DNA of 32,000 nucleotides, taken from contig CAZCCD010000002.1 of assembly GCA_964497435.1 (NCBI GenBank), positions 1 to 32,000 on the forward strand, given 5' to 3'. The stretch is from Candidatus Woesearchaeota archaeon (lineage in GTDB: Archaea > Nanobdellota > Nanobdellia > Pacearchaeales > GW2011-AR1). The translations under genes were made by a program, and so were the position numbers. This document shows, in pieces, positions 854-30,935 of the stretch. Under the pieces are notes generated by a model. It made no database searches, was not told where the DNA came from, and saw only the letters and a program-made list of their open reading frames with translations. Each line of letters opens with the position of its first letter. Position 1 is the first letter of the stretch.

Positions 854-900
854 TCTTACAAAAAAAAGAAAGAATAAGGAAAAAATAAAAAAAAGTTAAA

Positions 901-1545
901 TTATAAGCAACGACCCACGATACATTCAGTTGTTATGTTTGTAGCACAGTTTATTGTACCATTATGGGCACCCGTTCCAATACAATAATATTCTGTTAGT
1001 GTAACATTATTAACACAATTATCAAAGTAGCTATAAGGAGTACCATTTTTGTATCCACTAACACTTCCATTTACATTTGCCACTATACCTCCATCAGTGT
1101 CATTGCAAGAATCTGCTGGAGTACAAACTCCCCCTTCATCAGTTTGCCCGTTACAGTTGTCGTCTACATTGTTGCATGTCTCTGTTCCTGGACTTCCTGG
1201 CGTACATGAAACTTGATCATTTATACAAGTTGAACTTCTTTGACAAGCTCCAACACCACAAGTTGTTGAACCAGCAACACAACTCTCTTCAAAATTATCA
1301 TTTAAACTTGAGCACCCACTATCTCCTTTAATAGAGCCATCAGTGCAACTCTTTTTGCTTCCTATGTAGTCACATCTTCCATCTCCATCATTATCTATCC
1401 TATCACCACATGCATTCCAATTACTTTGTCCAGGGGCCTTTCCAGTTACAGACCCTCTTACAAGGATAATTAACAAAATCACTATAGCAACAATTATAGC
1501 TATTATCCACCAAGTTTTAGATGACAATCCTCTTTTATTCATCAT
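901..1545 (-). CDS. Secreted or anchored cysteine-rich protein with DNDGDG/DDNCNG metal-binding-like motifs; pilin-like N-terminus
   Basis: N-terminus MMNKRG|LSSKTWWIIAIIVAIVILLIILV (charged, then hydrophobic). Motifs CGDRIDNDGDGRCDY and CNNVDDNCNGQTDEGGVC. About 24 Cys. GGAGGT Shine-Dalgarno sequence upstream. Confidence 0.6.
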   Translation of the reverse strand: MMNKRGLSSKTWWIIAIIVAIVILLIILVRGSVTGKAPGQSNWNACGDRIDNDGDGRCDYIGSKKSCTDGSIKGDSGCSSLNDNFEESCVAGSTTCGVGACQRSSTCINDQVSCTPGSPGTETCNNVDDNCNGQTDEGGVCTPADSCNDTDGGIVANVNGSVSGYKNGTPYSYFDNCVNNVTLTEYYCIGTGAHNGTINCATNITTECIVGRCL

Positions 1546-1549
1546 TTTT

Positions 1550-1555
1550 ACCTCC
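1550..1555 (-). promoter_or_regulatory. Shine-Dalgarno sequence (GGAGGT) for CDS 901..1545
   Basis: Minus strand reads GGAGGTAAAAATG directly at the start codon. Confidence 0.5.
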
Positions 1556-1730
1556 TTTCACTTAAATAATGTATAACTTAGATTATATCTTAAAAAAGAA
1601 AATATATATATATCTTTCGGTTAATCACTATCAACTTAAAATGATATTCATCTTTTAATTTAAAATAATCTTAAAGATTGCTTTTATTTATATGTAAAAT
1701 TTGCACTCCTCACATTTGCTAGTTGTGAAT

Positions 1731-1778
1731 TATGTTAATCAAATCTGTGAACGAAAGTGAACAGCAATTTAGAAAATC
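1731..1778 (+). repeat. Copy of dispersed ~50-nt repeat (family 1: TATGTTAA..AAATCTG[C/T]GAAC..AGTGA..CAGC..AAT)
   Basis: tatgttaatcaaatctgtgaacgaaagtgaacagcaatttagaaaatc aligns block by block with 5924-5972, 25831-25866 and 28492-28537. A partial inverted partner lies at 1697-1722 (aaatttgcactcctcac). Confidence 0.55.
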
Positions 1779-1854
1779 ACAAATTCGGGGTATGTCTTGA
1801 TAACTTGACAGTATTTGGTTAAGCTAATCTTTGCCATAAAGAAAAAACCCAAAC

Positions 1855-1862
1855 TTTATTAA
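1855..1862 (+). promoter_or_regulatory. TATA-like box for ftsY (leaderless spacing)
   Basis: TTTATTAA centred about 27 nt upstream of the ATG at 1885. The same AA[A/C]TTTATTAACC string recurs at 3311-3323. Confidence 0.4.
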
Positions 1863-1884
1863 CCATTAATTTACTAATTCTTTT

Positions 1885-3036
1885 ATGTTCTCCAAACTCA
1901 AAGAAAAATTAAAAAGTTGGACAAAAAAACTCACTGAAAAAGCAGAAAAAATAGAAGAAACTCCAGAAAAAGAACTTAAAGTACCTATGAAGTTCGAACC
2001 GGGCTTGCAAAAATATGAACCTGATTTAGAAAAACTCCAAGAAAAAATTGAAGAAATAAAAGAAGAAACCAGAGAAATAAAAAAAGAGATTAAAGAAAAA
2101 GAACTAGAAAAGAAAATAGAGATTATTGAAAAAAAGGAAGAGGAAAAACCAGGCTTCTTTAAAAAATTGGTTTCTAAAATATCTAAAGTAAAAATATCTG
2201 AAAAAGAATTTGAGGTTTATGAAGAGGAGTTAAAAATGCTTCTTTTAGAAAATAATGTTGCATTCGAAGTTGTAGAAAAAATAATAGAAAGGCTAAAAGA
2301 AGAAATAGTTGGCAAGGAGTTTTTAAAAAAAGAGATTGAAGATGAAATAAAAGACACATTAAAAATTATAATAGAAGAAGTAATAATCGAGCCTTTTAAC
2401 ATTATTGATAAAATTAAAGGAAAATCTCAAGACCAGGTTAGAGAGCCATTTGTAATTTTATTTTGCGGGATAAATGGAACTGGCAAGACAACGACAATAG
2501 CAAAAATTGCAAGCCACATGAAAAAAAATAAATTAAAGGTTATTTTAGCTGCCGCAGACACTTTTAGGGCAGCCTCAATAGAACAGTTAAAAAAACACGC
2601 TGAAAAAATAGATGTTAAAGTCGTTTCTCATGATTACGGAAGTGATCCTGCTGCTGTTGGTTTTGATGCAATAAAATATGCCAAAAAAAATTTCATGGAT
2701 GTTGTATTAATAGATACTGCAGGAAGAATGCATACTTCAAAAAATCTTTTAAAAGAGATGGAAAAAATATCAAGAGTTTGCAAGCCTGATTTAAAATTGT
2801 TTATAGGAGAAAGCATTACTGGAAATGATTCAATAGAGCAAGCTAAGAGTTTTGATTGGGCAATAGGAATTGATGGCATTGTCCTGACTAAGGCAGATGT
2901 TGATGAAAAAGGCGGGACAGCTTTATCACTTGGATATGTCACAAAAAAACCAATTTTATATCTTGGAACAGGCCAGGATTATGATGACATTGAGGTCTTT
3001 GACAAGAAGAAGTTTGTTAAGGAGCTTGGACTTTAA
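1885..3036 (+). CDS. ftsY: Signal recognition particle receptor FtsY
   Basis: SRP-GTPase motifs GINGTGKTTT, DTAGR and TKAD. E/K-rich N-terminal A domain. 383 aa. Confidence 0.95.
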   Translation: MFSKLKEKLKSWTKKLTEKAEKIEETPEKELKVPMKFEPGLQKYEPDLEKLQEKIEEIKEETREIKKEIKEKELEKKIEIIEKKEEEKPGFFKKLVSKISKVKISEKEFEVYEEELKMLLLENNVAFEVVEKIIERLKEEIVGKEFLKKEIEDEIKDTLKIIIEEVIIEPFNIIDKIKGKSQDQVREPFVILFCGINGTGKTTTIAKIASHMKKNKLKVILAAADTFRAASIEQLKKHAEKIDVKVVSHDYGSDPAAVGFDAIKYAKKNFMDVVLIDTAGRMHTSKNLLKEMEKISRVCKPDLKLFIGESITGNDSIEQAKSFDWAIGIDGIVLTKADVDEKGGTALSLGYVTKKPILYLGTGQDYDDIEVFDKKKFVKELGL

Positions 3037-3251
3037 TTATTTGGTTCTTCAAGTAATGTTCCTAATTCAGTTAAAGTCAGCCTTCTATTCCTAATGCCGG
3101 TTTCACTGTGTAAAAAATCGCCAGGAAGAGCTTCCATATTTTCTTCACAATCATAACTAACTTCTTCGTAACCCAAACTCCTGTGTGCATTAGCCATTAA
3201 ACTAAAATCCTTTCTCAATTGAGACATCTCAGAATAAACATCATTTACCAT
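3033..3251 (-). CDS. Hypothetical 72-aa protein
   Basis: Only ORF filling the ftsY-srp54 gap. TATA-like box (3269-3280) about 24 nt upstream of its ATG. Stop codon overlaps the ftsY stop by 4 nt. No family recognised. Confidence 0.4.
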   Translation of the reverse strand: MVNDVYSEMSQLRKDFSLMANAHRSLGYEEVSYDCEENMEALPGDFLHSETGIRNRRLTLTELGTLLEEPNN

Positions 3252-3313
3252 TATAATTGCCTCTTTTGATTATATATAAAATCTTTAATTTAAAAATCTT
3301 GCGAAACCCAAAA

Positions 3314-3321
3314 TTTATTAA
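3314..3321 (+). promoter_or_regulatory. Candidate TATA box driving the structured srp54 leader or an ncRNA
   Basis: aaatttattaacc closely matches the ftsY box aaactttattaacc. It predicts a start near 3345, about 145 nt before the srp54 ATG. No A/T box sits at -26 of srp54 itself. Confidence 0.35.
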
Positions 3322-3344
3322 CCTCTATTTTACTTGTTCTTCTG

Positions 3345-3490
3345 TACAGACTTTCATCGAAGGCAACGAGAGTTTACACGAGATAATCCAAAAGCGAGTG
3401 TGGGCTCTAGCAAAAAGAAAGTCGCTTGAGGGATCAAAGAGTTTCGTAAACTCACTCGTTTCCCTTCGGGAAAAACCGTAGGTTTTTAAC
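3345..3490 (+). promoter_or_regulatory. GC-enriched structured 5' leader of srp54, or an independent small RNA
   Basis: Long-range pairing gagagtttac (3368-3377) with gtaaactcactc (3446-3457). Local hairpins gagttt-cgt-aaactc, tttccc-ttc-gggaaa and aaaacc-gta-ggtttt. Contains family-2 repeat blocks shared with 6231-6383. Confidence 0.45.
3471..3489 (+). promoter_or_regulatory. Conserved 19-nt hairpin motif AAAAACCGTAGGTTTTTAA, 1 nt upstream of the srp54 ATG
   Basis: Identical 19-mer at 8148-8166 in the same position relative to the rps15 ATG. Inverted repeat AAAACC/GGTTTT encloses an AGGT (SD-like) core. Confidence 0.6.
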
Positions 3491-4852
3491 ATGTTAGAGA
3501 AACTCGGAGAAATAATAAGAAAGGCAACAAACAAGATAGCCAATGCTATATTTCTTGACAAAAATCTAGTTGATTCAATAATAAGAGATTTGCAAAGGGC
3601 TTTGATTGAGGCAGATGTAAATATACAATTAGTCAAAGACTTATCAGACAAGTTAAAAAAAATCGCCTTTGACGAGAGGATTAAAGGAATAGAAAAAAAA
3701 GAACATTTAATTAAAGTCCTCCATGACGAATTAATAAATATTCTTGGAGAGTACAAGCCTTTGACTCTTGAAAAAGGTCAAAACAGAATTTTATTTCTTG
3801 GTTTGTATGGGGCTGGAAAAACCAGCTCGATAGCAAAACTCGGAAATTATTATGCTAAAAGAGGAAACAAAGTTGCCTTAATTGGTTTAGATGTCCACAG
3901 GCCAGCAGCCTCAGAACAATTAAAGCAGTTAGCTGATAAAAATCATCTTACTTGTTTTATAGAACTTGAAGAAAAAAACCCTTTAAATATCTGGAAAAAA
4001 TATGAAAAAACTCTTAAAGAGTATGATTTAATTTTAATTGATACAGCAGGAAGGCATACACTTGATAAAGAGCTTGTTGAAGAAATAAAAACTCTTTCTA
4101 GAGAAATAAAGCCAAGTCATTCAATTTTAATTTTGCCGGCAGACATTGGACAGGCAGCAAAAAAACAATCAAAAGAATTTAAAGAAACAGTGAATATATC
4201 AGGAGTAATTATAACTAGAATGGATTCTACAGCAAAAGGAGGAGGAGCTTTAACAGCATGCAATGAGACAAAGGCTCCTGTCCATTTCATAGGAACAGGT
4301 GAAAAAATAAATGATATAGAAGAATTCAATCCAAAATCATTTTTATCAAGACTTTTAGGAATGGGTGATTTAGAAACATTAATAGAAAAAATAAGGTCAG
4401 TAACAGGGGAAAAAGAGCAAGAGGAATTAAAGGCTAAGCTTGAAGAAGGCAAGATTTCATTAGAAGATGTCATTGAGCAGGTAAAATCAATGGAAGAGAT
4501 TGGAGGCTTAGATAAAATAAAAAGCATGATACCTGGTTTTGGAAAAGCAAAAATTCCGGAAAACGCATTAGAAAGCCAGCAAGAAAAAATATCAAAATGG
4601 GAGCATATTTTAAAAAGCATGACTAAAGAAGAAAGAGAAAACCCTGAGTTATTGAAAAAGGAACATTCGAGAATAACAAGAATTGCACAAGGAGCAGGAG
4701 TCCATACTAGCGACATAAAATCCCTGCTTAAACAATATGATTTGTTAAGTGAAATGATAAACTCACAATCTGATTTTGATATGTCTAAAGGCCTTTCACA
4801 GAAACAAATGCAGAAGCTCGCTAAGAAATTCGGGAAAAAAATGAGGATTTAA
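3491..4852 (+). CDS. srp54: Signal recognition particle protein SRP54
   Basis: N-terminus MLEKLGE. Motifs GLYGAGKTSS, DTAGR and TRMD. C-terminal M domain. 453 aa. Confidence 0.95.
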   Translation: MLEKLGEIIRKATNKIANAIFLDKNLVDSIIRDLQRALIEADVNIQLVKDLSDKLKKIAFDERIKGIEKKEHLIKVLHDELINILGEYKPLTLEKGQNRILFLGLYGAGKTSSIAKLGNYYAKRGNKVALIGLDVHRPAASEQLKQLADKNHLTCFIELEEKNPLNIWKKYEKTLKEYDLILIDTAGRHTLDKELVEEIKTLSREIKPSHSILILPADIGQAAKKQSKEFKETVNISGVIITRMDSTAKGGGALTACNETKAPVHFIGTGEKINDIEEFNPKSFLSRLLGMGDLETLIEKIRSVTGEKEQEELKAKLEEGKISLEDVIEQVKSMEEIGGLDKIKSMIPGFGKAKIPENALESQQEKISKWEHILKSMTKEERENPELLKKEHSRITRIAQGAGVHTSDIKSLLKQYDLLSEMINSQSDFDMSKGLSQKQMQKLAKKFGKKMRI

Positions 4853-4965
4853 TATTAACCAATATAGAATTTCTTTAAATTAAGAGGATGGGATCTTTCA
4901 TATTCATAACACCGTCTTGCTAATTCTGAAACTAAAAATTATAAAATAAAACTATACAAAATTGA

Positions 4966-5634
4966 CTAATCTGTAGAAAACATAATTCCGGCTTCTAAAA
5001 CTCCCCCACCAATATCTAATTCCTGGCCAAAATCATTTGTAATATTCACAGATCTTCCAGAAGTCTCAATATAGAGAACTTTTTTCTTATCATCATCCAG
5101 AGCTATGTCTAACCCCAAAACAACAAGAGGTCCGACCCCGCCAAAACTTCCACTGGCTGAAGCAGTCTCACCTCCACCACTAATAGATAGTTCCTCTTTC
5201 ATATTGATATATGAAACCCCTCCACCAATTCTAAAATTCACACTCTTTCCTGGAAATACATAAAATCCGGCAAGTTCTCCTTGAAGCATTGTAATTTTTG
5301 CACTAGCATTTTCGATAATATTGTCTGGATCATAAATAAAAGGGTTTCCGTTTTTTTGTCCATAAGCTAAGGCTCCTTCTATGGTAAAGTGTTTTGAATT
5401 ATTAAAACTCACATTTCCCCTTATCCTTGGAACTGTCCCGTATATCTCTTGAAAAGCTTTGTCAGCGCCGTTATACATTCCAATTCCCCCTCCAAAATAA
5501 GTCCTTTGCTTAAATTCTTCTTGAGCCTCTTGGTTATTATTTTTATCTTGTGCATAAGCAGAATTAAAAAAAGGTGTTGTTAAAGTCCCTGCAACAGACA
5601 ATGGAATTAATAACTTTTTAACTAATCCTTTCAT
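4966..5634 (-). CDS. Secreted OMP-like protein: predicted 8-stranded beta-barrel, bacterial OmpA-TM/OmpX/OmpW-like pattern
   Basis: Start moved to the internal ATG at 5634 (MKGLVKK...), giving signal peptide ...FFNSAYA|QD. Eight amphipathic Gly/aromatic-rich strands; C-terminal ...LEAGIMFSTD. TATA-like box at 5655-5665. Confidence 0.55.
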   Translation of the reverse strand: MKGLVKKLLIPLSVAGTLTTPFFNSAYAQDKNNNQEAQEEFKQRTYFGGGIGMYNGADKAFQEIYGTVPRIRGNVSFNNSKHFTIEGALAYGQKNGNPFIYDPDNIIENASAKITMLQGELAGFYVFPGKSVNFRIGGGVSYINMKEELSISGGGETASASGSFGGVGPLVVLGLDIALDDDKKKVLYIETSGRSVNITNDFGQELDIGGGVLEAGIMFSTD

Positions 5635-5654
5635 AATAAAATTTGAAAGATAAT

Positions 5655-5665
5655 CTATATAAATA
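5655..5665 (-). promoter_or_regulatory. TATA-like box for the OMP-like gene
   Basis: ctatataaata centred about 26 nt upstream of the ATG at 5634. It supports the shorter start. Confidence 0.35.
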
Positions 5666-5699
5666 TTTGTGGTTTGCAAAATAGATATAAAAACATAAA

Positions 5700-6614
5700 A
5701 TGTCATCAAAAATCCTTGCGCAAGGCGCAGAAGCAAAAATTATTCTCTCAAATAATTTCGTAACAAAAGACAGAATAAAAAAATCCTATAGACTCCAAGA
5801 GCTTGATGAAAAGATACGAAAGCAAAGAACAAAGGCAGAAAAAAAACTTCTAGAAAAAGCATCCAAAGTGATTAATGTGCCAAAAATAATAACTGAAAAT
5901 AGCTCTGCTTCGCAGAAAATTAAGTTAACAATTAATAAAAAATCTGCGAACCCTAGTGAGCAGCTAAATAAAATTGAAATGGAGTATATTTCTGGTAAAA
6001 GATTATCCGATAATTTAGATAAGTTTTCTTTTCAAATTCAAAAACAAATCGCGAAATTGATCGGTCAAAACATATCCAAGCTCCACGATAATAACATAAT
6101 CCACGGAGATTTAACAACTAGCAATATGATTTTTGTAGAAGATTTGGATGTTAATAATTTAAGTAATACTCCAAACAGAAAAAATAACTTTAAATCAACT
6201 CATCAAAAATATACTGAGTTAACGTCTTCTCAGCGAAGAAATCTGGCAAAGCCGATTTCGAAGCAAAATCAATCAGCGAGCGACAGCGAGCCTAGTAGGG
6301 GTGGGCGAGAGTTTGCACGAGCCAAGTTTACATCAATCTTGAGTGCGGGCTCGAGTTGGTCGAGGAGTGGTGGTGGGAATAAATTTACCATATTCTTCAT
6401 AGACTTTGGCCTTGGCTTCATAAGCAACAAGCTAGAAGACAAGGCAGTTGATTTGCATTTATTAAAACAAGCTTTAGAAGCAAAACACTATAAACACTGT
6501 AAAGAATTGTGGAATTCAATTGAACAAGGATACAAAACATCTAAAGATTCTAAAGCTGTTCTCGAAAGATTAAAGGCTGTCGAAAGAAGGGGGAGATATA
6601 AGGAGAGGTATTAA
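5700..6614 (+). CDS. bud32: Bud32/PRPK (KEOPS) atypical protein kinase carrying two in-frame insertions
   Basis: Motifs ILAQGAEAKI, IEMEYISGK, HGDLTTSNM, FIDFGLG, EDKAVDLHL and ERRGRY. 304 aa against the roughly 200-220 aa usual for the family. Extra segments at about aa 68-89 and about aa 147-228. Confidence 0.85.
   Translation: MSSKILAQGAEAKIILSNNFVTKDRIKKSYRLQELDEKIRKQRTKAEKKLLEKASKVINVPKIITENSSASQKIKLTINKKSANPSEQLNKIEMEYISGKRLSDNLDKFSFQIQKQIAKLIGQNISKLHDNNIIHGDLTTSNMIFVEDLDVNNLSNTPNRKNNFKSTHQKYTELTSSQRRNLAKPISKQNQSASDSEPSRGGREFARAKFTSILSAGSSWSRSGGGNKFTIFFIDFGLGFISNKLEDKAVDLHLLKQALEAKHYKHCKELWNSIEQGYKTSKDSKAVLERLKAVERRGRYKERY
5902..5972 (+). repeat. Family-1 palindromic repeat copy inside the bud32 reading frame
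   Basis: Inverted arms ttcgcaga (5909-5916) and tctgcgaa (5943-5950). gttaacaattaa, aaatctgcgaac, agtgag and ctaaataa blocks are collinear with 28492-28537. Confidence 0.6.
6231..6383 (+). repeat. Family-2 GC-enriched repeat segment inside the bud32 reading frame
   Basis: cgagagtttgcacgag (6306-6321) vs cgagagtttacacgag (3367-3382). gagtgcgggctc (6341-6352) vs gagtgtgggctc (3396-3407). gatttcgaagcaa (6254-6266) vs catcgaaggcaa (3355-3366). Blocks occur in the same order in both loci. Confidence 0.55.
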
Positions 6615-6649
6615 CCAGAGAAAATCATAATTTATTAATTTTTATGTAA

Positions 6650-6663
6650 AAATAGCCCCTCCA
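6650..6663 (-). repeat. 14-nt direct repeat copying the 3' end of tRNA-Gln
   Basis: aaatagcccctcca at 6650-6663 equals 6775-6788, which is the last 11 nt of the tRNA plus 3 flanking nt. Confidence 0.7.
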
Positions 6664-6699
6664 ACTCCCAACCCCACTTTGTTAATAATAATTAGAAAG

Positions 6700-6765
6700 T
6701 CAAAGTGAAATTGCTCGGGATTCGAAAGTAAAATTGTTTCTGTGTTACGCGAACCAGTTATGGCT
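6700..6765 (+). repeat. Scrambled copy of the GC-enriched repeat family between the tRNA-end duplicates
   Basis: caaagtgaaattgct, gggattcgaaagtaaaa and gcgaacc resemble blocks at 1757-1772, 6254-6267 and 5946-5952. Confidence 0.4.
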
Positions 6766-6777
6766 TTCAACCATAAA

Positions 6778-6850
6778 TAGCCCCTCCAGGATTCGAACCT
6801 GGGTCGCAAGGACCAAAACCTTGCATACTTGACCGCTGTACTAAGGGGCT
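6778..6850 (-). tRNA. tRNA-Gln (anticodon UUG), 73 nt, no encoded CCA
   Basis: Folded by hand. 7-bp acceptor AGCCCCT/AGGGGCT, D stem GTAC/GTAT with GG in the loop, anticodon stem CAAGG/CCTTG with loop TTTTGGT, T arm CCAGG-TTCGAAT-CCTGG, discriminator A. Confidence 0.9.
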
Positions 6851-8167: not shown

Positions 8168-8521
8168 ATGATGCCAAAAATTAAGAAACCAAAAAATCAA
8201 GTAAAACAAAAAATCTCCCAGGAAGAGTTTGAATCAAAAGTAGTTGAGCTGTCAAAGTCAGGTTTAACAAGTGAAAAAATAGGCGAGGTGTTAAGAAAAG
8301 ACGGAATCCATTCAAAAGAATTTCAAAAAAAAATATCCCAAATTCTTAAGGAAAAGGATTTTTATGTTAATCCTGATATAAAAAATGTAGAACTAAAACT
8401 AACAAGGATTGAGAAGCATTCCAAAATTCATAAAAAAGACAGGAGAGCTATGAGGGAAAGAGAAAGGGTTTTCGCACAATTAAGAAAACTAAGAGAATAC
8501 TTTAATATAAAAAAGGTCTAA
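8168..8521 (+). CDS. rps15: 30S ribosomal protein S15 (uS15, S13e-type), N-terminally short
   Basis: Matches the archaeal S15 pattern: ..EEFESKVVELSKSGLTSEKIGEVLRKDGI.. then ..KHSKIHKKDRRAMRERERVFAQLRKLREYF. Confidence 0.8.
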   Translation: MMPKIKKPKNQVKQKISQEEFESKVVELSKSGLTSEKIGEVLRKDGIHSKEFQKKISQILKEKDFYVNPDIKNVELKLTRIEKHSKIHKKDRRAMRERERVFAQLRKLREYFNIKKV

Positions 8522-8527
8522 TCAAAA

Positions 8528-9865
8528 ATGGGTGAAATAAAGAATTCTTTAGAAGAGCAAATAAAAGATATAGCTAAAAAATTCCTTGAAAAAAGTTTGG
8601 AAAAAGAAATCCAAGTTGTAAGCCATTTCGACACTGATGGGATAAGTTCTGCGGCAATCATGGTTCAGGCATTGAAAAAACTGGACAAAAAATTCAACCT
8701 AAAAATAGTAAAAAGCCTTGAAGAACAAACAATTTACGATCTTAAAAAAAGCAAAATAACCTTTTTTTTAGATCTGGCATCGGGCAGTTTAAAACACATT
8801 GAAGAATCTAATTTAAAAGAAGTTTTCATCATAGATCATCATGAATTAATATCCAAAGTGCCTGACAAAGTAGAGATAATAAATCCACAGCTTCATTCAA
8901 AAGAAAAGTTAAGCAGCTCCAGCCTAACTTACTTATTTTGCAAAGAGTTGGATGAAGGAAATAAAGAATTCGCAAAGCTTGCAGTATTGGGAATGGTCGG
9001 AGATATAATGGAAAAGGAAATAGACAAATTCAACAGCCATATAATAGAAGACGGAAATGTAAAAAGAAAAAGAGGGTTGTTAATCTACCCCTCAACAAGG
9101 CCATTAAATAGAACTCTAGAATTCTCTTCGAGTCCATATATTCCTGGAATAACAGGAAACACTCAAGGGGTTATAGAATTATTAAGAGAAACAGGATTGT
9201 CTCCAAAAGACAGTAAATACAAAAGCATCATTGACTTAAATAAAGAAGAAATGGAAAAATTAGTAACTTCAATAATGTTAAAGAACCCTCAATGTAGACA
9301 TGATGAATTAATAGGAGACATCTTTCTTATAAAAATGTTTAACAAACTAGAAGATGCTCGTGAAATTTCTGCAATTGTAAATGCTTGTTCAAGGTTTGGA
9401 GACACAAATACTTCTTTGCAATTTCTTATGGAAATACCTTCTTCTAAAAAAATGGCAGAAGCAATACACATAAAGTATAAACAGTTATTAATATCCGGCC
9501 TTGACTTAATTTCAAAGATAGAAAAAATAAAAGGAAATGGCTTTATAATAATAAATGCAAAAAATAAAATAAAAGACACAATGATAGGAACAATTGCGAG
9601 CATACTTCAAAATTCTGGGATATACGAACAAGGAACAATAATCATAATAATGGCCTGTTACGACGATAAAATAAAAATTTCAGCAAGAACAGTTGGAAGA
9701 ATAGGCAGAAATGTCCGTGAATTACTTTCTAACGCTATAGAAAAAGTGGGCGGTGAAGTAGGCGGCCATGAGTTTGCTGCAGGATGCATAATCAGTAAAG
9801 AAAAAGAAAACCAATTTATAGAAGTCCTTAAAAAAAATCTTGAGATTGAGTTAGTTAGGGTCTGA
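8528..9865 (+). CDS. DHH/DHHA1 phosphoesterase, archaeal RecJ/GAN-like nuclease
   Basis: Motifs HFDTDGISS, IIDHH and GGHEFAAG. 445 aa. Confidence 0.8.
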   Translation: MGEIKNSLEEQIKDIAKKFLEKSLEKEIQVVSHFDTDGISSAAIMVQALKKLDKKFNLKIVKSLEEQTIYDLKKSKITFFLDLASGSLKHIEESNLKEVFIIDHHELISKVPDKVEIINPQLHSKEKLSSSSLTYLFCKELDEGNKEFAKLAVLGMVGDIMEKEIDKFNSHIIEDGNVKRKRGLLIYPSTRPLNRTLEFSSSPYIPGITGNTQGVIELLRETGLSPKDSKYKSIIDLNKEEMEKLVTSIMLKNPQCRHDELIGDIFLIKMFNKLEDAREISAIVNACSRFGDTNTSLQFLMEIPSSKKMAEAIHIKYKQLLISGLDLISKIEKIKGNGFIIINAKNKIKDTMIGTIASILQNSGIYEQGTIIIIMACYDDKIKISARTVGRIGRNVRELLSNAIEKVGGEVGGHEFAAGCIISKEKENQFIEVLKKNLEIELVRV

Positions 9866-13915: not shown

Positions 13916-16495
13916 TTAAAGCGTAGCTTGCTTCTCTCCTAACAAAGCCTGACCATACTTTCCATCAAAACCAGGCTTGACTCTTATTTTTCCTTCTCTA
14001 TTTTTCAAAATCAAATCTATTAATTTTGCATCAACGTTATTTTTAATAAAATCAGTTTCAGGAACATTTAATAAAATATTAAACTCATTACCAAAATTTT
14101 GGATTAAAGAATTATATCTTTTCCAAACACTGACAGAATTCATATCGACTCCAAAATGCAAGGCAATTAATTCATGCAAAGGAAGTAATTTATAAAAAGG
14201 TTTTGCATTAATTGGTTTATGTCCTAAAGGAAATTTAGCAATTTTGTCAACCCTATTATCCACACCAATTGTCAACGGTTTTTTGCAAATAGGGCAAAGT
14301 CCATTGAGTTTTTTTGTTTCTTCTGGTGAACAAGAAAAATTACAGTTTCTATGTCCATCATAATGATATTTTCCATATTCAGGAGGAGTTTCTATTGTTG
14401 CCTTTAATCCTTGTCCTGTCCTTATTGCCTTCATAATATTTTCATAACTTAATTCTTTAAGCTCAAATATAGTTGCCTCTCTTCCAATCCTCCACGGCCA
14501 AAAAGAATTATGAACAACCAATTGATTAGCAAGATAATTCTTATAACCAGGAACAGAGATATCATAAAGATAATCAACATCTGACTTAACATTATTAACA
14601 GATTTAACTTCTGCAAGGATAAAATCACCCACTCTCTTCACTTTAGACATCCTAAAAACCTTAAGATTATTAACATATTTATTTAACTTATTTCTTTTAA
14701 TATTATGGTTAAATCCAATTTTCTCCCTAAACTTTCTCAAATTCTCCCCATAGAGAATCAAATTATGACGATATTTCTGCTTTTTCTTCTCTAATAAATT
14801 TAAATAAACTGAACTAAAAATTTCAAACTTTTTTAATAAAGAATCAATTTGATATAATAACAACTTATTAGCTGAACATCCCTTAACACCATGATCATCT
14901 AAAGAACCTTCTGCATCAAAAAATCCTCTTAAAAATCCAGATATTTCATTCAAGGGTGCGGAAAAAATCGAACGAGGTATTCTCCTTATTTTGCTTCTAA
15001 AAACAGACTCTGGAAAGTTTAACTCAAAGAATTTAGCTATTGCAGAAGGAATAACTAAACCGTAAGAATGTTGTTGAGAATACTTAAACAGCCTAGAGCT
15101 ACAAGAAAATAGATTTTTAATTACATCTTGATAATATCTTAAAATATCCTTGTTCTTATCTGTTAAGATTAAACACTTCCCCCTATTTATCTTAGTCATA
15201 CAACCATCTCCAATAAAATATCCCAATAGTTCAAAAAGTTTAATAGAAGAATAATTTGGAAAACTAACCATAGGACCCATATGTTTACAATAATTACCTG
15301 TAAATAAGTTATAATCTAAACTAAGAATTTCAACTATTTTTTTTAATATTTTATCATTAATTTTTACAACTCCTTTCTCAATTTTCCAATAATGGTTTTT
15401 ATCTATTCCTAAAAAATCAGCTAATTGTTTCTGTGTTAATTTCCTTTTATTTCTTTTAGACCTTAAAAAAGAAAGTCCATCTCTGCTTAATGAAAAATAT
15501 ATATTAATATCTGGTTTCTTCATTAATATACTTCCTTCGTCATTATGGGAGATATATGCGGATCTAATTAACAGGTCTCCTTTTTTCAAATGAGAGGCAA
15601 ACTTTTCTATTATAACCCCTTTCTCCCACACATAAAATCTATGTTTATCAGAGACTTTTATCTCACCTCCAGCATATTTGATTTCTTTCAGCATATTTGG
15701 AGATAGTATCTTAGAATACTGAGCTTTAACTCCATTTTTATAAGACATATCTTTAAAATCGGCGTAAGCTACTATACCTTCATCTTTAATTTCAGAGATG
15801 GGAACAGTGTAACCATTCTCCAAGGTAATAAAAGTATCGGGATGCACACAGTGAGCGTCTGAAAAACTAACAACATTAACATTACCTTCTCCAATCTCTC
15901 CTAATCTCCAGGCCATAGAAGGATCAGCGCTCATCCCTGATTCAATTGCATAAATTTTATCTGTCTGATCTTGAAAACACTCTTTTAATGAATCAAATCC
16001 AGAATCACTCCCATATAAACCGAACCAAGGCGTGAATGCATGAGCAGGAATAATTTCAATTTTGTCTTCAATTTCTTTTAAGTCTTTAACTAAATCTCTA
16101 CATGTTATACCAAATATAGGCCTTCCATCATAATCCAATCTTCCTTTGCTTCCAAGATAGCTTGTTATTTTATCTGCGATTTCTCTGTTTGACGCAAAAA
16201 CCAAAAGATGGACAGCCCTTCTCTTTCCTCCTTGAGAAAACATCAAGCTTACTTCTGTCTGCCATAAAAAAGGAAAACCATTGACAGTTCTTAAAATTCC
16301 TTTATCATCTTCTGTCAATTTTTCATCAATTTCTTTCCTATGCAATGGATGCTGAAAATCCCCAACCCCCATCAAACCAAGACCTTTTACTCTCCCCCAT
16401 TTCTCAAGATTATCAATGCTTAAATCCTTAGAAGTTGCCCTTGCATATTTGGAATGAATCTGTAAATCAGCAATAATAAAACTCTCGTTAATCAT
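13916..16495 (-). CDS. PHP-domain endonuclease Q (EndoQ)-like protein interrupted by an intein
   Basis: N-terminus IADLQIHSKYA..GVGDFQHP and IIPAHAFTPW (PHP motifs). C-terminal zinc finger CNFSC..CPICKKPLTIGV. Extein total 411 aa. Start at the ATG at 16495 fits the A/T box at 16516-16526. Confidence 0.7.
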   Translation of the reverse strand: MINESFIIADLQIHSKYARATSKDLSIDNLEKWGRVKGLGLMGVGDFQHPLHRKEIDEKLTEDDKGILRTVNGFPFLWQTEVSLMFSQGGKRRAVHLLVFASNREIADKITSYLGSKGRLDYDGRPIFGITCRDLVKDLKEIEDKIEIIPAHAFTPWFGLYGSDSGFDSLKECFQDQTDKIYAIESGMSADPSMAWRLGEIGEGNVNVVSFSDAHCVHPDTFITLENGYTVPISEIKDEGIVAYADFKDMSYKNGVKAQYSKILSPNMLKEIKYAGGEIKVSDKHRFYVWEKGVIIEKFASHLKKGDLLIRSAYISHNDEGSILMKKPDINIYFSLSRDGLSFLRSKRNKRKLTQKQLADFLGIDKNHYWKIEKGVVKINDKILKKIVEILSLDYNLFTGNYCKHMGPMVSFPNYSSIKLFELLGYFIGDGCMTKINRGKCLILTDKNKDILRYYQDVIKNLFSCSSRLFKYSQQHSYGLVIPSAIAKFFELNFPESVFRSKIRRIPRSIFSAPLNEISGFLRGFFDAEGSLDDHGVKGCSANKLLLYQIDSLLKKFEIFSSVYLNLLEKKKQKYRHNLILYGENLRKFREKIGFNHNIKRNKLNKYVNNLKVFRMSKVKRVGDFILAEVKSVNNVKSDVDYLYDISVPGYKNYLANQLVVHNSFWPWRIGREATIFELKELSYENIMKAIRTGQGLKATIETPPEYGKYHYDGHRNCNFSCSPEETKKLNGLCPICKKPLTIGVDNRVDKIAKFPLGHKPINAKPFYKLLPLHELIALHFGVDMNSVSVWKRYNSLIQNFGNEFNILLNVPETDFIKNNVDAKLIDLILKNREGKIRVKPGFDGKYGQALLGEKQATL
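14507..15850 (-). mobile_element. Intein, 448 aa, with LAGLIDADG homing endonuclease and XRE-type HTH
   Basis: Begins at Cys (..SFSDAH|CVHPDTFITLENG) and ends ..QLVVHN|SFWPW. LAGLIDADG blocks LLGYFIGDGC and GFLRGFFDAEGS. HTH segment LTQKQLADFLGIDKNHYWKIEKG. Confidence 0.85.
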
Positions 16496-16515
16496 AATAA
16501 TCAAGAAATAAAACA

Positions 16516-16526
16516 CTATATAATTA
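16516..16526 (-). promoter_or_regulatory. TATA-like box for the EndoQ-like gene
   Basis: ctatataatta centred 26 nt upstream of the ATG at 16495. Confidence 0.35.
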
Positions 16527-16707: not shown

Positions 16708-19700
16708 TTATTGTCTCAACCTATATAAAATCACAATGACTACTGCTGCTATTAAAACAGCAACAATAGCCCAAAGCCACCAATAGCTTTTTCCTTCTTT
16801 AGTAACTTCCTCTGTTTCACTTACAGCTGCTCCTGTGATTGGAGATCCTGCTTCCTCTTCTTGTTCACTAGAAGGTGTGCTAGCAACAGGATCTGAAGTT
16901 GCAATAATTTTTATATTTGCTTTATTCGTTCCATTTGTAGCAGCTATACTGTTAAGGGTCACAGCAACATCATAAAAGTTATCTCCTGTAACCTCAAATT
17001 TCTTTGTTTCTCCAATAGCAAAAGTAGATGTTTGAGGCGTGCTCGAAACTTTAACAGTAGCTGCTGCTACTGTTACACCAGTAAGCTCAACAAAATGATA
17101 CTCACTATTTAAAGTAAATCTAAGTTTATCATTAACATTTAAATCCCTTGAATATCCTGAATTAAATTGTGACTCACTGACATCGTGTATTGAACCTGCA
17201 GCACCTGCACCTCCATCACTTGAGGAACTAGAAGATGATGAGCTGCTTCCTGAAGAAGGCGCATTTCCAATAACATTTGGTGCAACCCCAGAGAAATGAG
17301 GCACTCTTATGTATATCATATTTGAAGTAGTATTAATATAACAATATTCTGTATTTGTAGTTCCATTGAGATTAGAATCTGTCTTACTACATGTTCTTCC
17401 AGCAGTTGTTAAAAAGTTTCTATAACCTGTTGAATTATAAGACCTATTATTTGAATTTCCTAAATACTGGTCAATATCTGATGTTATATTAGAAGTTGTA
17501 TGGCCTAAAGAAGCGTTCCAAACAACATTCCAGTTCTCGTCGTAAAGGAAAGGTATTGAGACATTCATGCTGCCTGCATCATTGATTACAGAATCAGAAT
17601 AAGGCATCCCAATTACCACATAGTCATAAACTTCTGAAGGAACAAAACTTCCAAATTGCCAGACCTGATTTGCACTACTTCCACCACTTGATGCCTGATC
17701 ATTTATGACACTCTCCATTGGGGGTTGTTTAGCCGAGAACATGTCAAAATTATAGAAAGTTATTGTTGTATTTGATGAAATAAGTTTCATCTCCATATTT
17801 ATCTTTCCGGCAACCAAGGCCTTCAAAGGATTAAATTCTGAATTATTCATAGCTGTTAAAACGCAAGAAGAGCCTGGATTTATTCCATCACAAGTTGAAG
17901 TTGATCTTATGAACCTCATGTTTATTGGAAAAGCAGAGACATTCATTTCTTCAAGCTGTCCAGAAGAATTAACTTTTCTAAATCCTAAATCACCATCTCC
18001 TTCATTCATCTGAATTATAGTTATGTTATTTACGGCTTTGCTTAGATTAATTGTTTTTTCAGTTGGGGGGGCTTGATTAGGGAACAATTTTATCTTTGCT
18101 ATAACATTTCTAGGTATTGGCCAGACAAAACTTCCTTGAGAAATCTGATTATCCTCAATTATATAGTGTAGTTCGCCAAAAGTACTATCATTTCTAAGAT
18201 ACAAATCTACATGGGGGGTATCATCTGTAATTAAACCACCAGTAGAATTCACAAAGTTAATTGTCACTTTTGTTGCATTTACGTCTCCACCAGTGGCATT
18301 ATTATAAGCTCCAGCAAGAGGACCTAAAGTAACATTTTGAGTCGTTGTTGCAGAAAGGCTAACATTTTGTAACATTCCCACGTACTCTGCAACACCATCA
18401 TGAGTTGAATTTGTTGTGTTTTTTGCATAAAACTCTAAAAGATAATTAGAATTCAGCAAGCTTATATTATACCACGCAAATTGGCCATTCATCGTACAAG
18501 GAGGATTAGATTGATTTAATTGTGAAGTCGATGATAAATTAAGCTCTCCTGTATCTTTCATTGGAGGAACAAAACCAGTCCAAGGCATCATTCTTGGGAT
18601 TATTGATGTAACATTTCTTATTGGTGTTAAATTTCCAGAAACTCCGATACATCCTGATAGATAAACTCTTGTAACAGTCAAATTAAGTTGAACATTTAAT
18701 ACCTGACCAGCCACTGTAGGAGTAACTGTTGAATTTGATCTTGGAGGTGCAGGACAGTGCGTCGCATTCATAAACTGACCATTGCATGTTGACCCATTTC
18801 CAAATGAGAATCCGCTAATTCCTGTGAATGGCTCTCTTAAAACCATAATCGTATACTGTCTATTCAATGGAACATAAACTTGCTTAACACTTACATTTGT
18901 CCTAAAATTACTTTCAATTGGAAATCCTGCTTTTTGCTCCATTACTTCATAGCCAAATAACTGCCACCCGCCTGCAGTCGTATTTATTGCACTAATATTA
19001 ATAGTTGCAGCATCTTCAACATAGAAAGTTGTTCCATTAAGTGTTGGGGGTTTCATAAATTCATTCCCTTGAAAGTCATCAAAGTCAAAACTAGGCAATG
19101 GGTAATACATCATTGCAGGGAAAGGAGGTAATATAGTCCCAACTTTAATCACAGAACCACTTGCATTTTCATGTGTTGAATTAGAACCTTGCCTATAATA
19201 CATCTTTAACAAGAACAAGTCTGCAGAGCTATTAATATTTGACAAAGTAAAAGAACCATCATTACCACTTAAAGCACTAGCTACAAAAATCTCTTTTGGC
19301 GGGCCATTTGGTTGCTCAGCAAATTGATAAATAGAAACATTGGCTCCTGTTACATTATGACCTGTTTCATTTTTTATATAACCTGAAAAAGCAAAATTAG
19401 TTGTAGTTGATGATGTTGAGGCATTCCATCCTCCATTATCCCTTGTCACATTAAGGCTTATATTTACATTTTGGCCTTCTACTGAAGTAACATTAAATGC
19501 AAAATTCTTTGTTGTTCCCCATTTGAATCCTCCTGCTGTTAGATTCCACCTTAAACTACTAGAAGTATTAATAAAAGATGACCATGTCGCATTTGTGGAA
19601 TTTGAATTAGAAACAAATGTAACGCCCATAGGCAATGAAAACTCAACTACAGTTACATTAGATGTATCGTCTGATTGCCCTGTTATTGAAAAATTAACTT

Positions 19701-20283
19701 GAGTATTTGCAGATCTATTTATAGAAGTTGGATTTTGAGAAACCGCAAAAGGGGTTATACCATTTATCCTTATACTTATTGTTGTAAAGTTTATGGGAGA
19801 GTGCGAAGAATTTGAGGTTGAAATATTTAAGGTGTATGTTCCGGGGATTGATGTTGTTGCATTAAACCAAAAGTATTGCAATCCATTAGACGCCCAAAGA
19901 TTAACAAGACTATTCATTGATGCATTAGTCCAATTCAAAACAGTGCTGGTAGTCATACTTGAGTTTGATGTGACATTAAATGTATTTGCTACAATAACAG
20001 TGCCATTAGAAGTGCCGTTAGAAGTATCAGTAAAAATAAAACCGACAGGAAGTACAATACTAACTAGCGTTACATTCATCGTACCTGCAACAGTATCTGT
20101 GTTATTTATAGAAATGTTATATGTAAATTCTACATTTTCATTCACTGAAAAAGATGTTCCGCTAACAGGTCCTATTATATGCGCCGCAAAAACAAGATAC
20201 AGAGAAAGAACTAAAATTGCACTTACAAATAAAAATAAACCTATCTTAATCCTACCTCTTTTATCCATCTTCCCTTTTAACAT
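16708..20283 (-). CDS. Large cell-surface (S-layer-like) glycoprotein candidate with a C-terminal TM anchor
   Basis: 1191 aa. N-terminal signal/anchor MDKRGRIKIGLFLFVSAILVLSLYLVFA. Dozens of N-x-S/T sequons, a poly-Ser linker, and C-terminal YWWLWAIVAVLIAAVVIVILYRLRQ. Confidence 0.7.
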   Translation of the reverse strand: MLKGKMDKRGRIKIGLFLFVSAILVLSLYLVFAAHIIGPVSGTSFSVNENVEFTYNISINNTDTVAGTMNVTLVSIVLPVGFIFTDTSNGTSNGTVIVANTFNVTSNSSMTTSTVLNWTNASMNSLVNLWASNGLQYFWFNATTSIPGTYTLNISTSNSSHSPINFTTISIRINGITPFAVSQNPTSINRSANTQVNFSITGQSDDTSNVTVVEFSLPMGVTFVSNSNSTNATWSSFINTSSSLRWNLTAGGFKWGTTKNFAFNVTSVEGQNVNISLNVTRDNGGWNASTSSTTTNFAFSGYIKNETGHNVTGANVSIYQFAEQPNGPPKEIFVASALSGNDGSFTLSNINSSADLFLLKMYYRQGSNSTHENASGSVIKVGTILPPFPAMMYYPLPSFDFDDFQGNEFMKPPTLNGTTFYVEDAATINISAINTTAGGWQLFGYEVMEQKAGFPIESNFRTNVSVKQVYVPLNRQYTIMVLREPFTGISGFSFGNGSTCNGQFMNATHCPAPPRSNSTVTPTVAGQVLNVQLNLTVTRVYLSGCIGVSGNLTPIRNVTSIIPRMMPWTGFVPPMKDTGELNLSSTSQLNQSNPPCTMNGQFAWYNISLLNSNYLLEFYAKNTTNSTHDGVAEYVGMLQNVSLSATTTQNVTLGPLAGAYNNATGGDVNATKVTINFVNSTGGLITDDTPHVDLYLRNDSTFGELHYIIEDNQISQGSFVWPIPRNVIAKIKLFPNQAPPTEKTINLSKAVNNITIIQMNEGDGDLGFRKVNSSGQLEEMNVSAFPINMRFIRSTSTCDGINPGSSCVLTAMNNSEFNPLKALVAGKINMEMKLISSNTTITFYNFDMFSAKQPPMESVINDQASSGGSSANQVWQFGSFVPSEVYDYVVIGMPYSDSVINDAGSMNVSIPFLYDENWNVVWNASLGHTTSNITSDIDQYLGNSNNRSYNSTGYRNFLTTAGRTCSKTDSNLNGTTNTEYCYINTTSNMIYIRVPHFSGVAPNVIGNAPSSGSSSSSSSSSSDGGAGAAGSIHDVSESQFNSGYSRDLNVNDKLRFTLNSEYHFVELTGVTVAAATVKVSSTPQTSTFAIGETKKFEVTGDNFYDVAVTLNSIAATNGTNKANIKIIATSDPVASTPSSEQEEEAGSPITGAAVSETEEVTKEGKSYWWLWAIVAVLIAAVVIVILYRLRQ

Positions 20284-20471: not shown

Positions 20472-21050
20472 TTAGCTTAACGCAACCTCTTCTTGATATT
20501 CTCTATATTCTTTAGACTGCTGAATTCTATATATAATAAAGCCAATAATTCCTATGATTATAGAAATTATACTCCCCCACAAAACAAAGCTATTTAATCT
20601 TCTAGGATTTGGGGGTTTTTCATTTATATCTAAGAATGTTTCATTAGGATTTATTTGTTCATATAAGAGAATTATTTTCACATTGGCCCCAGATGTGACA
20701 TTATTTGATAAGGTTATACCTAATAAAGTTATTTCTAAGTCATAATAACCATCATTTTCGAAATCAAATTTCTTTGATTCAGAAACATTAAAGATAAAAT
20801 TCTCGCCATTAATTCCAATAACAACAAAGCTTGAAGTCAAACCCGCAAGCTCAACAAAATATTCTTCTCCATTTAGTATAAATCTAAATCCATCATATAA
20901 GTTAAGGTCTTTAGAATATCCTAACTTAAGCTGCTCTCCACTAACATTATGTGTAGCTCCAAAAGAACCAAAAGCTAGAAAAGTCTCATTAGCGTAAACA
21001 TTTACAAAAAACAAAATCATTCCAATTATCAAAAAAATTTTATATATCAT
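20472..21050 (-). CDS. Small surface protein paralogous to the C-terminal module of the 1191-aa protein
   Basis: Signal peptide, then LGYSKDLNLYDGFRFILNGEEYFVELAGLT..FDFENDGYYDLEITL..ANVKII. This aligns with SGYSRDLNVNDKLRFTLNSEYHFVELTGVT..FEVTGDNFYDVAVTL..ANIKII. C-terminal TM helix. Confidence 0.65.
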   Translation of the reverse strand: MIYKIFLIIGMILFFVNVYANETFLAFGSFGATHNVSGEQLKLGYSKDLNLYDGFRFILNGEEYFVELAGLTSSFVVIGINGENFIFNVSESKKFDFENDGYYDLEITLLGITLSNNVTSGANVKIILLYEQINPNETFLDINEKPPNPRRLNSFVLWGSIISIIIGIIGFIIYRIQQSKEYREYQEEVALS

Positions 21051-26938: not shown

Positions 26939-27547
26939 ATGATTACAAAAAAACAAGCAGAACAAATAAAAAAACAGCTCCTTGAACAAATAGATAAGTC
27001 AGATATTCCAAACAAAGAAGAATTAAAATCTTCTATTGAATCAATGTCTCCTCAAGAACTTGAAGAATTTTTAAAGAAAAATAAATTAATAAAATCTCAA
27101 GGTGAATGCATTTTTTGTTCTATAATAGATAACAAAATTCCTTCATATAAGTTGGCTGAAAATAAAGAAGCCATTGCTGTGCTTGAAATAAATCCTATTT
27201 CAAAAGGACATACATTAATAATTCCAAAAACTCATTCAGATAAAGCATCAAAAAACTCTTACGATCTCGCAGAAGAGATGGCTTTAATAATATCTAAAGC
27301 ATTTACTCTTTCTAGAGTTGACATAATTCCCTCAATTTTATTTGACCATGAAATAATAAATGTCCTTCCTGTATACAAAGACGAGAGTCTTAATTCAAAA
27401 AGGAAAAAACATAGCGAAAAAGAGCTTGAAGAAATCCAAAACCAAATGCTTAAAGTTAAAGAAGAAAAACATCAAGAAAAACCAAAAGAAAAGAAAATCC
27501 ATGTTTTTACAGACAAAGATACGTGGCTACCAAAAAGAATTCCATAA
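26939..27547 (+). CDS. HIT-family protein with a degenerate histidine triad and an N-terminal coiled extension
   Basis: CIFCSIIDNKIPSYKLAENKEAIAVLEINPISKGHTLIIPKTH is a typical HIT N-terminal half. The position of HxHxHxx reads FDHEIINVLP. Confidence 0.6.
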   Translation: MITKKQAEQIKKQLLEQIDKSDIPNKEELKSSIESMSPQELEEFLKKNKLIKSQGECIFCSIIDNKIPSYKLAENKEAIAVLEINPISKGHTLIIPKTHSDKASKNSYDLAEEMALIISKAFTLSRVDIIPSILFDHEIINVLPVYKDESLNSKRKKHSEKELEEIQNQMLKVKEEKHQEKPKEKKIHVFTDKDTWLPKRIP

Positions 27548-29397: not shown

Positions 29398-29432
29398 TAA
29401 AATAATAATTAATAGAAATTTTTAAACCTTGG

Positions 29433-30017: not shown

Positions 30018-30273
30018 AAATAAAATAAACTCTTAATGTTTATAAACATTTCTTTAGAAAAATAGCAGCTCGCAATCTCGCTGATTGTATTATAAATAAG
30101 ACTGATTAATAAAGAGAGAGTAAGTTAGCAAATCTTAGATATGACTATCTACAAATTTATTCATTAAAGTTAAATTAAGCATAATAATCTTGGGCATCTA
30201 AATCTAAAAAATTAATGCTCAGAAAAGATCGTAGTTATTGTTAAGCTATAAACTTGATTAAATACATCTACAT

Positions 30274-30714: not shown

Positions 30715-30780
30715 CTTAAGCCTCTCTTTCATATATAGGAATAACAAACAAGTGTTTATAAATATTTTTAATCTGTTTGA

Positions 30781-30799
30781 CTCACTCGTAAACTCGCTC
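30781..30799 (+). repeat. Fragment of the family-2 repeat
   Basis: ctcactcgtaaactcgctc shares tcgtaaactc and ctcactcg with 3443-3458. Its reverse complement, gagcgagtttacgagtgag, resembles 3367-3382 and 6306-6321. Confidence 0.4.
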
Positions 30800-30935
30800 A
30801 TCCATTAGTATTACTTTGAATCAGATTTCATTGTTTACTTTTATTGGATATAATCAATCATCAAATTGTTTTTTATCAACAATCATATAAATTTATGAGC
30901 GAAGCGAACTTATTCATTGATTGACGTTTGATTTC

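Follow-up and report, generated by a model that had tools for sequence, protein, structure and literature searches.

A predicted outer-membrane-type beta-barrel encoded between SRP54 and Bud32 in a DPANN archaeon

Transmembrane beta-barrels are regarded as a hallmark of diderm bacteria and of the organelles descended from them, and they need Omp85/BamA for assembly; to our knowledge, archaea are not known to make or insert outer-membrane barrels. What, then, is to be made of a gene that appears to encode such a barrel among core archaeal genes? The question is raised by a coding sequence of 222 residues at positions 4966-5634 (minus strand, stop codon included) of a 32,000-nucleotide stretch of DNA, hereafter the window (positions 1 to 32,000 of contig CAZCCD010000002.1, from a Candidatus Woesearchaeota archaeon). 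The coding sequence was delimited from its open reading frame (ORF) and translation and placed in the OMP_b-brl family by Pfam and AlphaFold2. The sequence comparisons and the structural model presented here show its predicted product to be a Sec-exported, eight-stranded beta-barrel of the bacterial outer-membrane-protein (OMP) superfamily (Pfam OMP_b-brl), and they show the gene to be a resident of a DPANN archaeon (Nanoarchaeota in the sense of GTDB; Pacearchaeota- or Woesearchaeota-like). The explanation that best accounts for the whole, and which we favor as reasonably probable, is that the gene was acquired long ago from a bacterium and that its product has been retained as an anchor or adhesin embedded in a membrane, into which it would insert without the beta-barrel assembly machinery (BAM).

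The window protein scored 30.1 bits against Pfam PF13505 (OMP_b-brl), above the gathering cut-off of 28.7 (E 6.4e-7), and 12 of the 21 aligned family members matched the same profile on their own at E ≤ 0.01, the best of them at 3.2e-9. These 21 sequences are the phmmer homologues that make up the alignment A1. The exhaustive phmmer search yielded 50 cluster representatives, 21 of them below 1e-10 and five below 1e-30, with a best identity of 45%; one representative, P0038, is an unrelated repeat protein. The word-index homologue search recovered only the protein itself when queried with the window protein, and at least seven proteins when queried with the alignment; no match to the window protein was obtained when it was used as a single query against species-representative genome contigs, nor in NCBIfam, in a single-protein sequence search of the PDB, or in PHROGs. 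Regarding OmpW, the window protein gave no match to PF03922 at E ≤ 10, and the family profile gave a weak match to OmpW in the PDB (E 0.016).

Modelling with AlphaFold2 on the 21-sequence alignment gave a confident structure (predicted local distance difference test, pLDDT, 89; predicted template-modelling score, pTM, 0.76), whereas the model from the single sequence, with a pLDDT of 35, was not used. The predicted strands, of 12-23 residues each, comprise residues 44-56, 67-78, 83-96, 109-127, 132-153, 156-178, 185-199, and 205-220, and together they delimit a domain of eight antiparallel strands (residues 44-220, positions 4975-5505, minus strand) that is indicated by AlphaFold2, by Foldseek, and by the alternation of its faces. 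In the model these long antiparallel strands, even in number, would form a closed barrel, the pairing of strand 1 with strand 8 being taken from Foldseek matches and from homology. The first loop is predicted to contain a short helix (residues 59-65) bearing a conserved (D/E)IYG motif; two residues, G139 and E147, do not vary among the 21 aligned sequences, and the reading frame is intact. Upon comparison of the model with the PDB by Foldseek, the 50 best matches were all bacterial OMPs, the top ones being the OmpA transmembrane domain, Ail, NspA, OmpW, OmpX, OprF-N, and OprG, and the model aligned over the whole OmpA, OmpX, and OmpW barrels with a probability of 1.00. No lipocalin, soluble barrel, or beta-sandwich appeared among these 50 matches.

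These results concur with most of a preliminary description of the locus, made by reading the sequence, which had proposed a Sec signal peptide followed by eight amphipathic strands and a small outer-membrane barrel like OmpA, OmpX, or OmpW: the segments that it listed correspond one to one to the eight AlphaFold2 strands, and the profile search and structure prediction that it had suggested as checks returned, respectively, OMP_b-brl and a confident model of eight long strands. Its alternative of a soluble lipocalin-like barrel finds no support in the 50 best structural matches or in strands that reach 23 residues. Its profile match, fold, and surface pattern place the window protein in the OMP_b-brl superfamily; the profile does not assign it to the OmpW family, and it is not lipocalin-like.

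The surface pattern includes a putative lipid-facing side. Hydrophobicity alternates strictly along each strand, across the whole family, and with the 'out' and 'in' faces assigned from this alternation, Foldseek matches, and homology, none of the 46 'out' residues of the window protein is charged and 76% are large and hydrophobic, while its 'in' face is 27% charged and 23% Gly. The corresponding figures for 40 archaeal-type sequences are 2.3% charged residues outside, with 29% charged and 22% Gly inside, and those for 11 bacterial-type sequences are 1.0% charged outside, with 26% charged and 26% Gly inside. Since the archaeal and bacterial-type values are nearly equal, the archaeal copies appear not to have drifted towards a soluble protein. 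On the 'in' face, E86, E120, and E147, together with conserved Gly residues, are invariant or nearly so in alignment A1, and E190 and E214 are the commonest residues at their positions; acidic and basic residues of this polar face are paired. By analogy, such a face, rich in Gly and charge, is like the filled interior of OmpA or OmpX and would argue for an anchor over a channel.

The ORF, 222 codons followed by a TAG stop, opens its translation with MKGLVKKLLIPLSVAGTLTTPFFNSAYAQD. The mechanical ORF list placed the start at TTG 5736, inside bud32, but ATG 5634 seems the better start, because all homologues begin with MKxLvKK and because it is preceded at 29 nt by a TATA box. This putative box, TTTATATA (positions 5656-5663, minus strand), is a perfect one whose first base stands at −29 relative to the ATG; TATA-like boxes beginning at −26 to −31 precede about ten other genes of the window, in accordance with the shared spacing that had been described earlier. 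The position of the box implies an archaeal transcript that is probably leaderless or nearly so. A T-rich stretch just 3' of the stop codon, TCAATTTTGTATAGTTTTATTTTATAATTTTTAG on the coding strand (positions 4930-4965, minus strand, by sequence reading), is likely an oligo-T archaeal terminator. Residues 1-28 (positions 5551-5634, minus strand) form a predicted signal peptide with the three Sec-type parts, namely the n-region MKGLVKK, the h-region LLIPLSVAGTLTTPFF, and the c-region NSAYA, and with a small-x-small site cleaved presumably between AYA and QD; peptide and site were judged by eye, the small residues at −3 and −1 are kept across the family, and AlphaFold2 models residues 2-18 as a helix. 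The mature part contains 15.5% Gly, no Trp, no hydrophobic helix, and no Cys, so that there is no lipobox and the protein would not be a lipoprotein.

That the gene belongs to the archaeon is indicated by its surroundings. It lies between SRP54, convergent with it at the right border of the slot (positions 3491-4852, plus strand; Pfam SRP54, SRP_SPB, and SRP54_N), and the KEOPS kinase Bud32, divergent from it at the left border (positions 5700-6614, plus strand; NCBIfam TIGR03724, 163.9 bits against a cut-off of 125), so that profiles confirm the position given in the preliminary description; the promoter region said there to be common to the barrel gene and bud32 is a divergent spacer of 65 bp. 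FtsY, S15, archaeal RecJ, aIF2-alpha, and RadA are also encoded nearby in the window, whose SRP54 shows 69-77% identity to the SRP54 of metagenome-assembled genomes (MAGs) labelled Nanoarchaeota, Pacearchaeota, or Woesearchaeota. Logan assemblies of the runs SRR12113383 and SRR12113430 contain contigs that are 100% identical over positions 4464-6805 and 4464-6265, respectively, both covering the two junctions of the gene. Its GC content at third codon positions (GC3) is 0.238 against a window mean of 0.240 (z-score −0.05), and its codon use is mid-range for the window. Because the assemblies of these runs are identical and GC3 and codon use are typical, the sequence data, as far as they go, rule out both a mis-join and a recent import. 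Chimeric assembly, for which the preliminary description had advised a check, was accordingly rejected on the identity of both junctions in two other runs, and recent transfer on the composition of the gene and on the occupation of the same slot in relatives.

The relatives carry their orthologues, in effect, at the same position, which is what the earlier suggestion of a search for them called for. All close homologues with a readable contig share this location, transcribed away from Bud32 and close to SRP54, and at least six further archaeal loci, which come from different samples, show this gene order. The SRP54–Bud32 slot houses P0002 (locus L003, 43-45% identity), P0003 (L087, 44%), P0005 (L088/L089, 44%), where the wider gene order of the window is repeated as well, and the more distant P0020 (L004/L005, 29-30%). 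Bud32 was also seen as a neighbor in L003, L004/L005, and L088, and SRP54 in L003, L004, L087, L088, L055, and L061. A further homologue, P0052 (41% identity), adjoins a GatE fragment and is therefore taken as archaeal; the genomic context of P0008 (L094) and P0021 (L006) is ambiguous as to domain. The strict signal-peptide pattern [KR][KR]xLxP[LI] was found in 25 of 51 scanned sequences, including all seven members in the SRP54–Bud32 slot, and several of the pattern-negative members carry variants of it by eye.

When a family hidden Markov model (HMM) was run over 80 SRP54 loci of related species, 56 of which hold both SRP54 and Bud32, diverged members were found directly downstream of SRP54 in L055 and L061 (42-51 bits to the family profile), and a member in L029 lay 2 kb further on from the slot position (44.9 bits against PF13505). 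L012 gave a weak match to the HMM. A protein of 165 residues in L026 (positions 8446-8976, minus strand) keeps the N-terminal signal motif (MKGLVNKLLPLVAG) and the C-terminal GSGFRF around an unrelated middle, and from its sequence it looks like a remodelled or decaying copy, or a remnant, in the same neighborhood. Most other relatives have a VKOR-like membrane protein of ~130 residues in the slot, or nothing. Across L007-L086 the slot sometimes holds a peptidase C39-like gene, an alpha/beta hydrolase, or toxin-antitoxin-like genes; signal-peptide proteins found there in L072 and L076 are unrelated to the barrel family and had no Pfam match. The interval thus seems to be a variable slot that collects envelope-related accessory genes. 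Two further observations concern these loci. In L078, from a Woesearchaeota MAG, a YkuD L,D-transpeptidase with a PG_binding_1 domain (positions 1426-2316, minus strand), that is, a bacterial cell-wall enzyme on an archaeal contig, lies directly downstream of SRP54. In L016 and L019, an archaeal SRP54 (74-75% identity to that of the window) is followed by a Bud32-like gene under MAG titles of 'Omnitrophota bacterium' and 'Bacillota bacterium', and it is likely that these contigs are mis-binned or the bins mislabelled.

Eleven sequences that form a group apart lack the [KR][KR]xLxP[LI] motif, and five of them have an extra N-terminal domain of ~70 residues (VVYLKNGDIIRG), which recurs in P0043 at another place in the tree. 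Of the five, P0025 (E 6.3e-9 with the window protein; 27.3 bits against Pfam OmpW, cut-off 24) is found on a contig with genes for FecR, an extracytoplasmic function (ECF) sigma factor, GatC, and a CTP_transf_3 (KdsB-type) protein, a set that is, judged by gene content, typical of a diderm bacterium. The second loop of the window protein, KNGNPFIYDPDNIIENASAKIT, bears a striking resemblance to that of this bacterial-type group, such as KSGEPIIYDPNNIIDEGTAELT in P0026. On L097, P0043 and a tyrosine recombinase (Phage_integrase) lie ~500 bp apart (positions 869-2098, minus strand, and 2596-3363, plus strand) in DNA of 31% GC, which hints at mobile-element traffic as a route for the barrel. The simplest reading of these sequences is one old transfer, in which the ancestor of the archaeal clade would have taken the gene from a diderm bacterium and passed it on vertically, with frequent loss. 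Horizontal acquisition from a bacterium, already put forward in the preliminary description, is therefore supported, but as an old and stably inherited event and not a recent one.

How such a protein might work in an archaeon can be outlined as follows. After export by the signal recognition particle (SRP) and Sec and removal of its signal peptide, the barrel would fold into a lipid bilayer on its own, without BAM; small barrels of the OmpA and OmpX type fold unaided into lipid vesicles in vitro. As its interior appears to be filled with charged residues and Gly, its role would be that of a membrane anchor or adhesin and not of a channel, and it would display loop 1 (with its helix and (D/E)IYG motif), loop 2 (GxP), and a long hairpin between strands beta5 and beta6. 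The membrane would most plausibly be one at the cell surface or at a site of contact with a host, and the candidates would be the membrane of the archaeon itself, vesicles, a membrane of the host, or an outer layer that has escaped recognition.

Several observations weigh against an old bacterial barrel kept as such an anchor. A large S-layer-like glycoprotein that is anchored at its C-terminus is encoded in the window (positions 16708-20283); it points to an ordinary envelope of one membrane, in which an OMP has no evident place. Barrel genes occupy the slot in 3-5 of the 56 related species, which is not what a core part of the envelope would show. The two faces of the barrel were set from pattern, structural matches, and homology, and not from model coordinates. 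The C-terminus reads EAGIMFSTD: the Phe that had been noted near the C-terminus is indeed present as Phe219, but it is fourth from the end, three residues following it, and the canonical terminal-aromatic beta-signal of this copy is, as far as its sequence goes, degenerate. A C-terminal aromatic residue is kept by 16 of the 40 archaeal-type and 7 of the 11 bacterial-type relatives, many relatives ending in Phe. As for the origin, the neighbor-joining tree is star-like and does not fix the number and direction of transfers, and P0043 groups with an archaeal subclade despite its bacterial-type N-terminal domain, which bears on both.

We regard it as distinctly unlikely that the archaeon, or a subset of DPANN, possesses a second outer lipid layer of its own in which the barrel would be a true archaeal OMP. 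Retention of the uncharged belt across all archaeal members would fit this idea, as would the two membranes reported in some archaea, including DPANN ARMAN cells and the SM1 euryarchaeon (PMC4243693), and the possible distant porin-like relative mentioned in Altiarchaeales (PMC12228718). Several OMPs and an insertase would nevertheless be expected of an outer membrane, and the window contains a single barrel gene and, among the 31 ORFs of its 32 kb, no Omp85/BamA-type gene; the rarity of the barrel in the slot and the membrane-anchored S-layer-like protein point the same way. Targeting of a host or partner membrane was another suggestion of the preliminary description; delivery of the barrel to a partner cell, in whose membrane (the outer one, if the host is diderm) it would fasten the episymbiont or label the site of contact, is in our judgement rather unlikely. 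Small-genome Pacearchaeota and Woesearchaeota do encode murein-degrading surface enzymes and have been proposed as episymbionts of bacteria (PMC8204110), the L,D-transpeptidase in the slot of L078 carries a peptidoglycan-binding domain, and the archaeal-type members that keep a terminal aromatic residue do so as BAM substrates do. No delivery system is known or was seen here, however; OMPs normally enter from the periplasmic side and not from outside through the lipopolysaccharide leaflet, and the window copy has no aromatic residue at its end.

A soluble secreted or pseudo-periplasmic barrel, similar to lipocalins or avidin and with its hydrophobic face lining a ligand cavity, would be compatible with the alternation of residues, which by itself leaves the outward face undefined. 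We consider it very improbable, in view of the absence of soluble barrels from the 50 best PDB matches, of strands of 19-23 residues that far exceed those of soluble eight-stranded barrels, of a polar face whose 23% Gly and pairs of acidic and basic residues recall the interiors of OmpA and OmpX, and of the homology to OMP_b-brl and to a protein encoded on a diderm-type bacterial contig. Hardly credible, finally, is an artefact, whether a bacterial contaminant joined to an archaeal contig or a very recent non-functional transfer. The family is bacterial in origin and MAG bins of this group are sometimes mislabelled, as L016 and L019 illustrate; nonetheless, the junctions recur unchanged in two other runs, the gene order is repeated in other archaeal loci, composition is typical, the archaeal TATA box has the usual spacing, and the frame and the key residues are preserved. 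The old acquisition with BAM-free insertion is thus the explanation that we retain. That it amounts to the first true transmembrane beta-barrel family native to Archaea, placed without BAM in a lipid membrane at the cell surface, either an unrecognised outer layer of the archaeon's own or the outer membrane of a bacterial host, where it would be an attachment anchor, is a tentative suggestion. A limited literature search found no paper on OMP barrels in Nanoarchaeota, Pacearchaeota, or Woesearchaeota, and the nearest published remark that it returned is that on Altiarchaeales, concerning a possible distant relative of PopA, in PMC12228718.

Other features of the window deserve mention in their own right. 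The 1191-residue protein at positions 16708-20283 (minus strand) has a signal or anchor segment at its N-terminus and a transmembrane helix at its C-terminus, and it contains a poly-Ser tract and dozens of N-x-S/T sequons; it had no Pfam match and is, by its sequence, probably an S-layer or other surface glycoprotein. It adjoins a protein of 192 residues (positions 20472-21050, minus strand) that also ends in a transmembrane helix and has a short stretch in common with it, YSRDLNVNDKLRFTLNSEYHFVELTGVT versus YSKDLNLYDGFRFILNGEEYFVELAGLT. A protein of 866 residues (positions 13916-16516, minus strand) contains an intein with a LAGLIDADG homing endonuclease and a helix-turn-helix domain, its extein matching the uncharacterised TIGR00375. 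Bud32 of the window has a low-complexity insertion of ~80 residues, rich in Ser, Asn, and Lys (roughly residues 148-229), that splits the kinase match, its relatives being 200-250 residues long. A type IV prepilin peptidase (Peptidase_A24) stands beside a run of small proteins with N-terminal hydrophobic segments (positions 27527-28363 and 28705-31653, minus strand); the small proteins gave no Pfam matches and may be pilin-like or other membrane proteins.

What is new here is a familiar fold in an unexpected domain of life and at a conserved genomic position. A barrel family that is conserved, syntenic, and, from its promoter signals, apparently expressed in DPANN archaea raises the questions of whether some of these tiny cells have a second membrane, whether folds of the OMP class can enter an archaeal or host-derived membrane without BAM, and whether bacterial-type surface proteins serve for attachment to bacterial hosts, as murein-degrading enzymes had hinted. 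The gene is, in addition, a clean example of a bacterial envelope gene turned into a stable part of an archaeal core-gene neighborhood.

Among known systems, phage-encoded small OMP barrels were the top matches in a viral structure library (e.g., A0A6J5T9E2, E 4.4e-11), and they show that such barrels travel on mobile elements; unlike them, the window protein has no PHROG match and there are no phage genes near its gene in the window. OmpW and OprG, eight-stranded channels for hydrophobic molecules, are approached through the weak family-profile match, the OmpW match of P0025, and structural template-modelling (TM) scores of 0.68-0.69; the window protein differs from them in its failure to match PF03922 and in an 'in' face that is charged and Gly-rich instead of a hydrophobic channel lining. 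Direct homology links it to the bacterial-type P0025, P0026, P0028, P0037, P0041, and P0043 (E 1e-4 to 6e-9, 26-31% identity), with which it shares the IYG, GxP-IYDP, and E147 motifs; in contrast to the archaeal-type members, these carry the ~70-residue N-terminal extension and are devoid of the archaeal-type signal-peptide motif. With the barrels of PF13505, a family of the membrane beta-barrel clan that has OprH among its solved members and covers small barrels of the opacity and Ail type, it has in common the signal peptide, the eight amphipathic strands, the uncharged belt, and the many Phe-terminal relatives. It departs from them in its archaeal genome and promoter and in the missing terminal aromatic residue of the window copy, and the archaeal family has its own loop-1 helix with (D/E)IYG and its own [KR][KR]xLxP[LI] signal-peptide motif.

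The OmpA transmembrane domain, OmpX, Ail, and NspA, eight-stranded non-channel barrels of Proteobacteria, are its best structural matches (OmpA 9fzd_A, E 3.6e-9 and target-normalised TM 0.75; OmpX, target TM 0.71), despite the lack of a detectable sequence match (9-15% identity in the structural alignments) and an archaeal host with no known outer membrane. In contrast to full-length OmpA, the window protein has no C-terminal peptidoglycan-binding domain. With this group it shares a polar interior with paired charges and, in the model, it would have a long hairpin projecting beyond the membrane as in OmpX. By analogy, the protein would thus work most like OmpX, Ail, or the transmembrane domain of OmpA.

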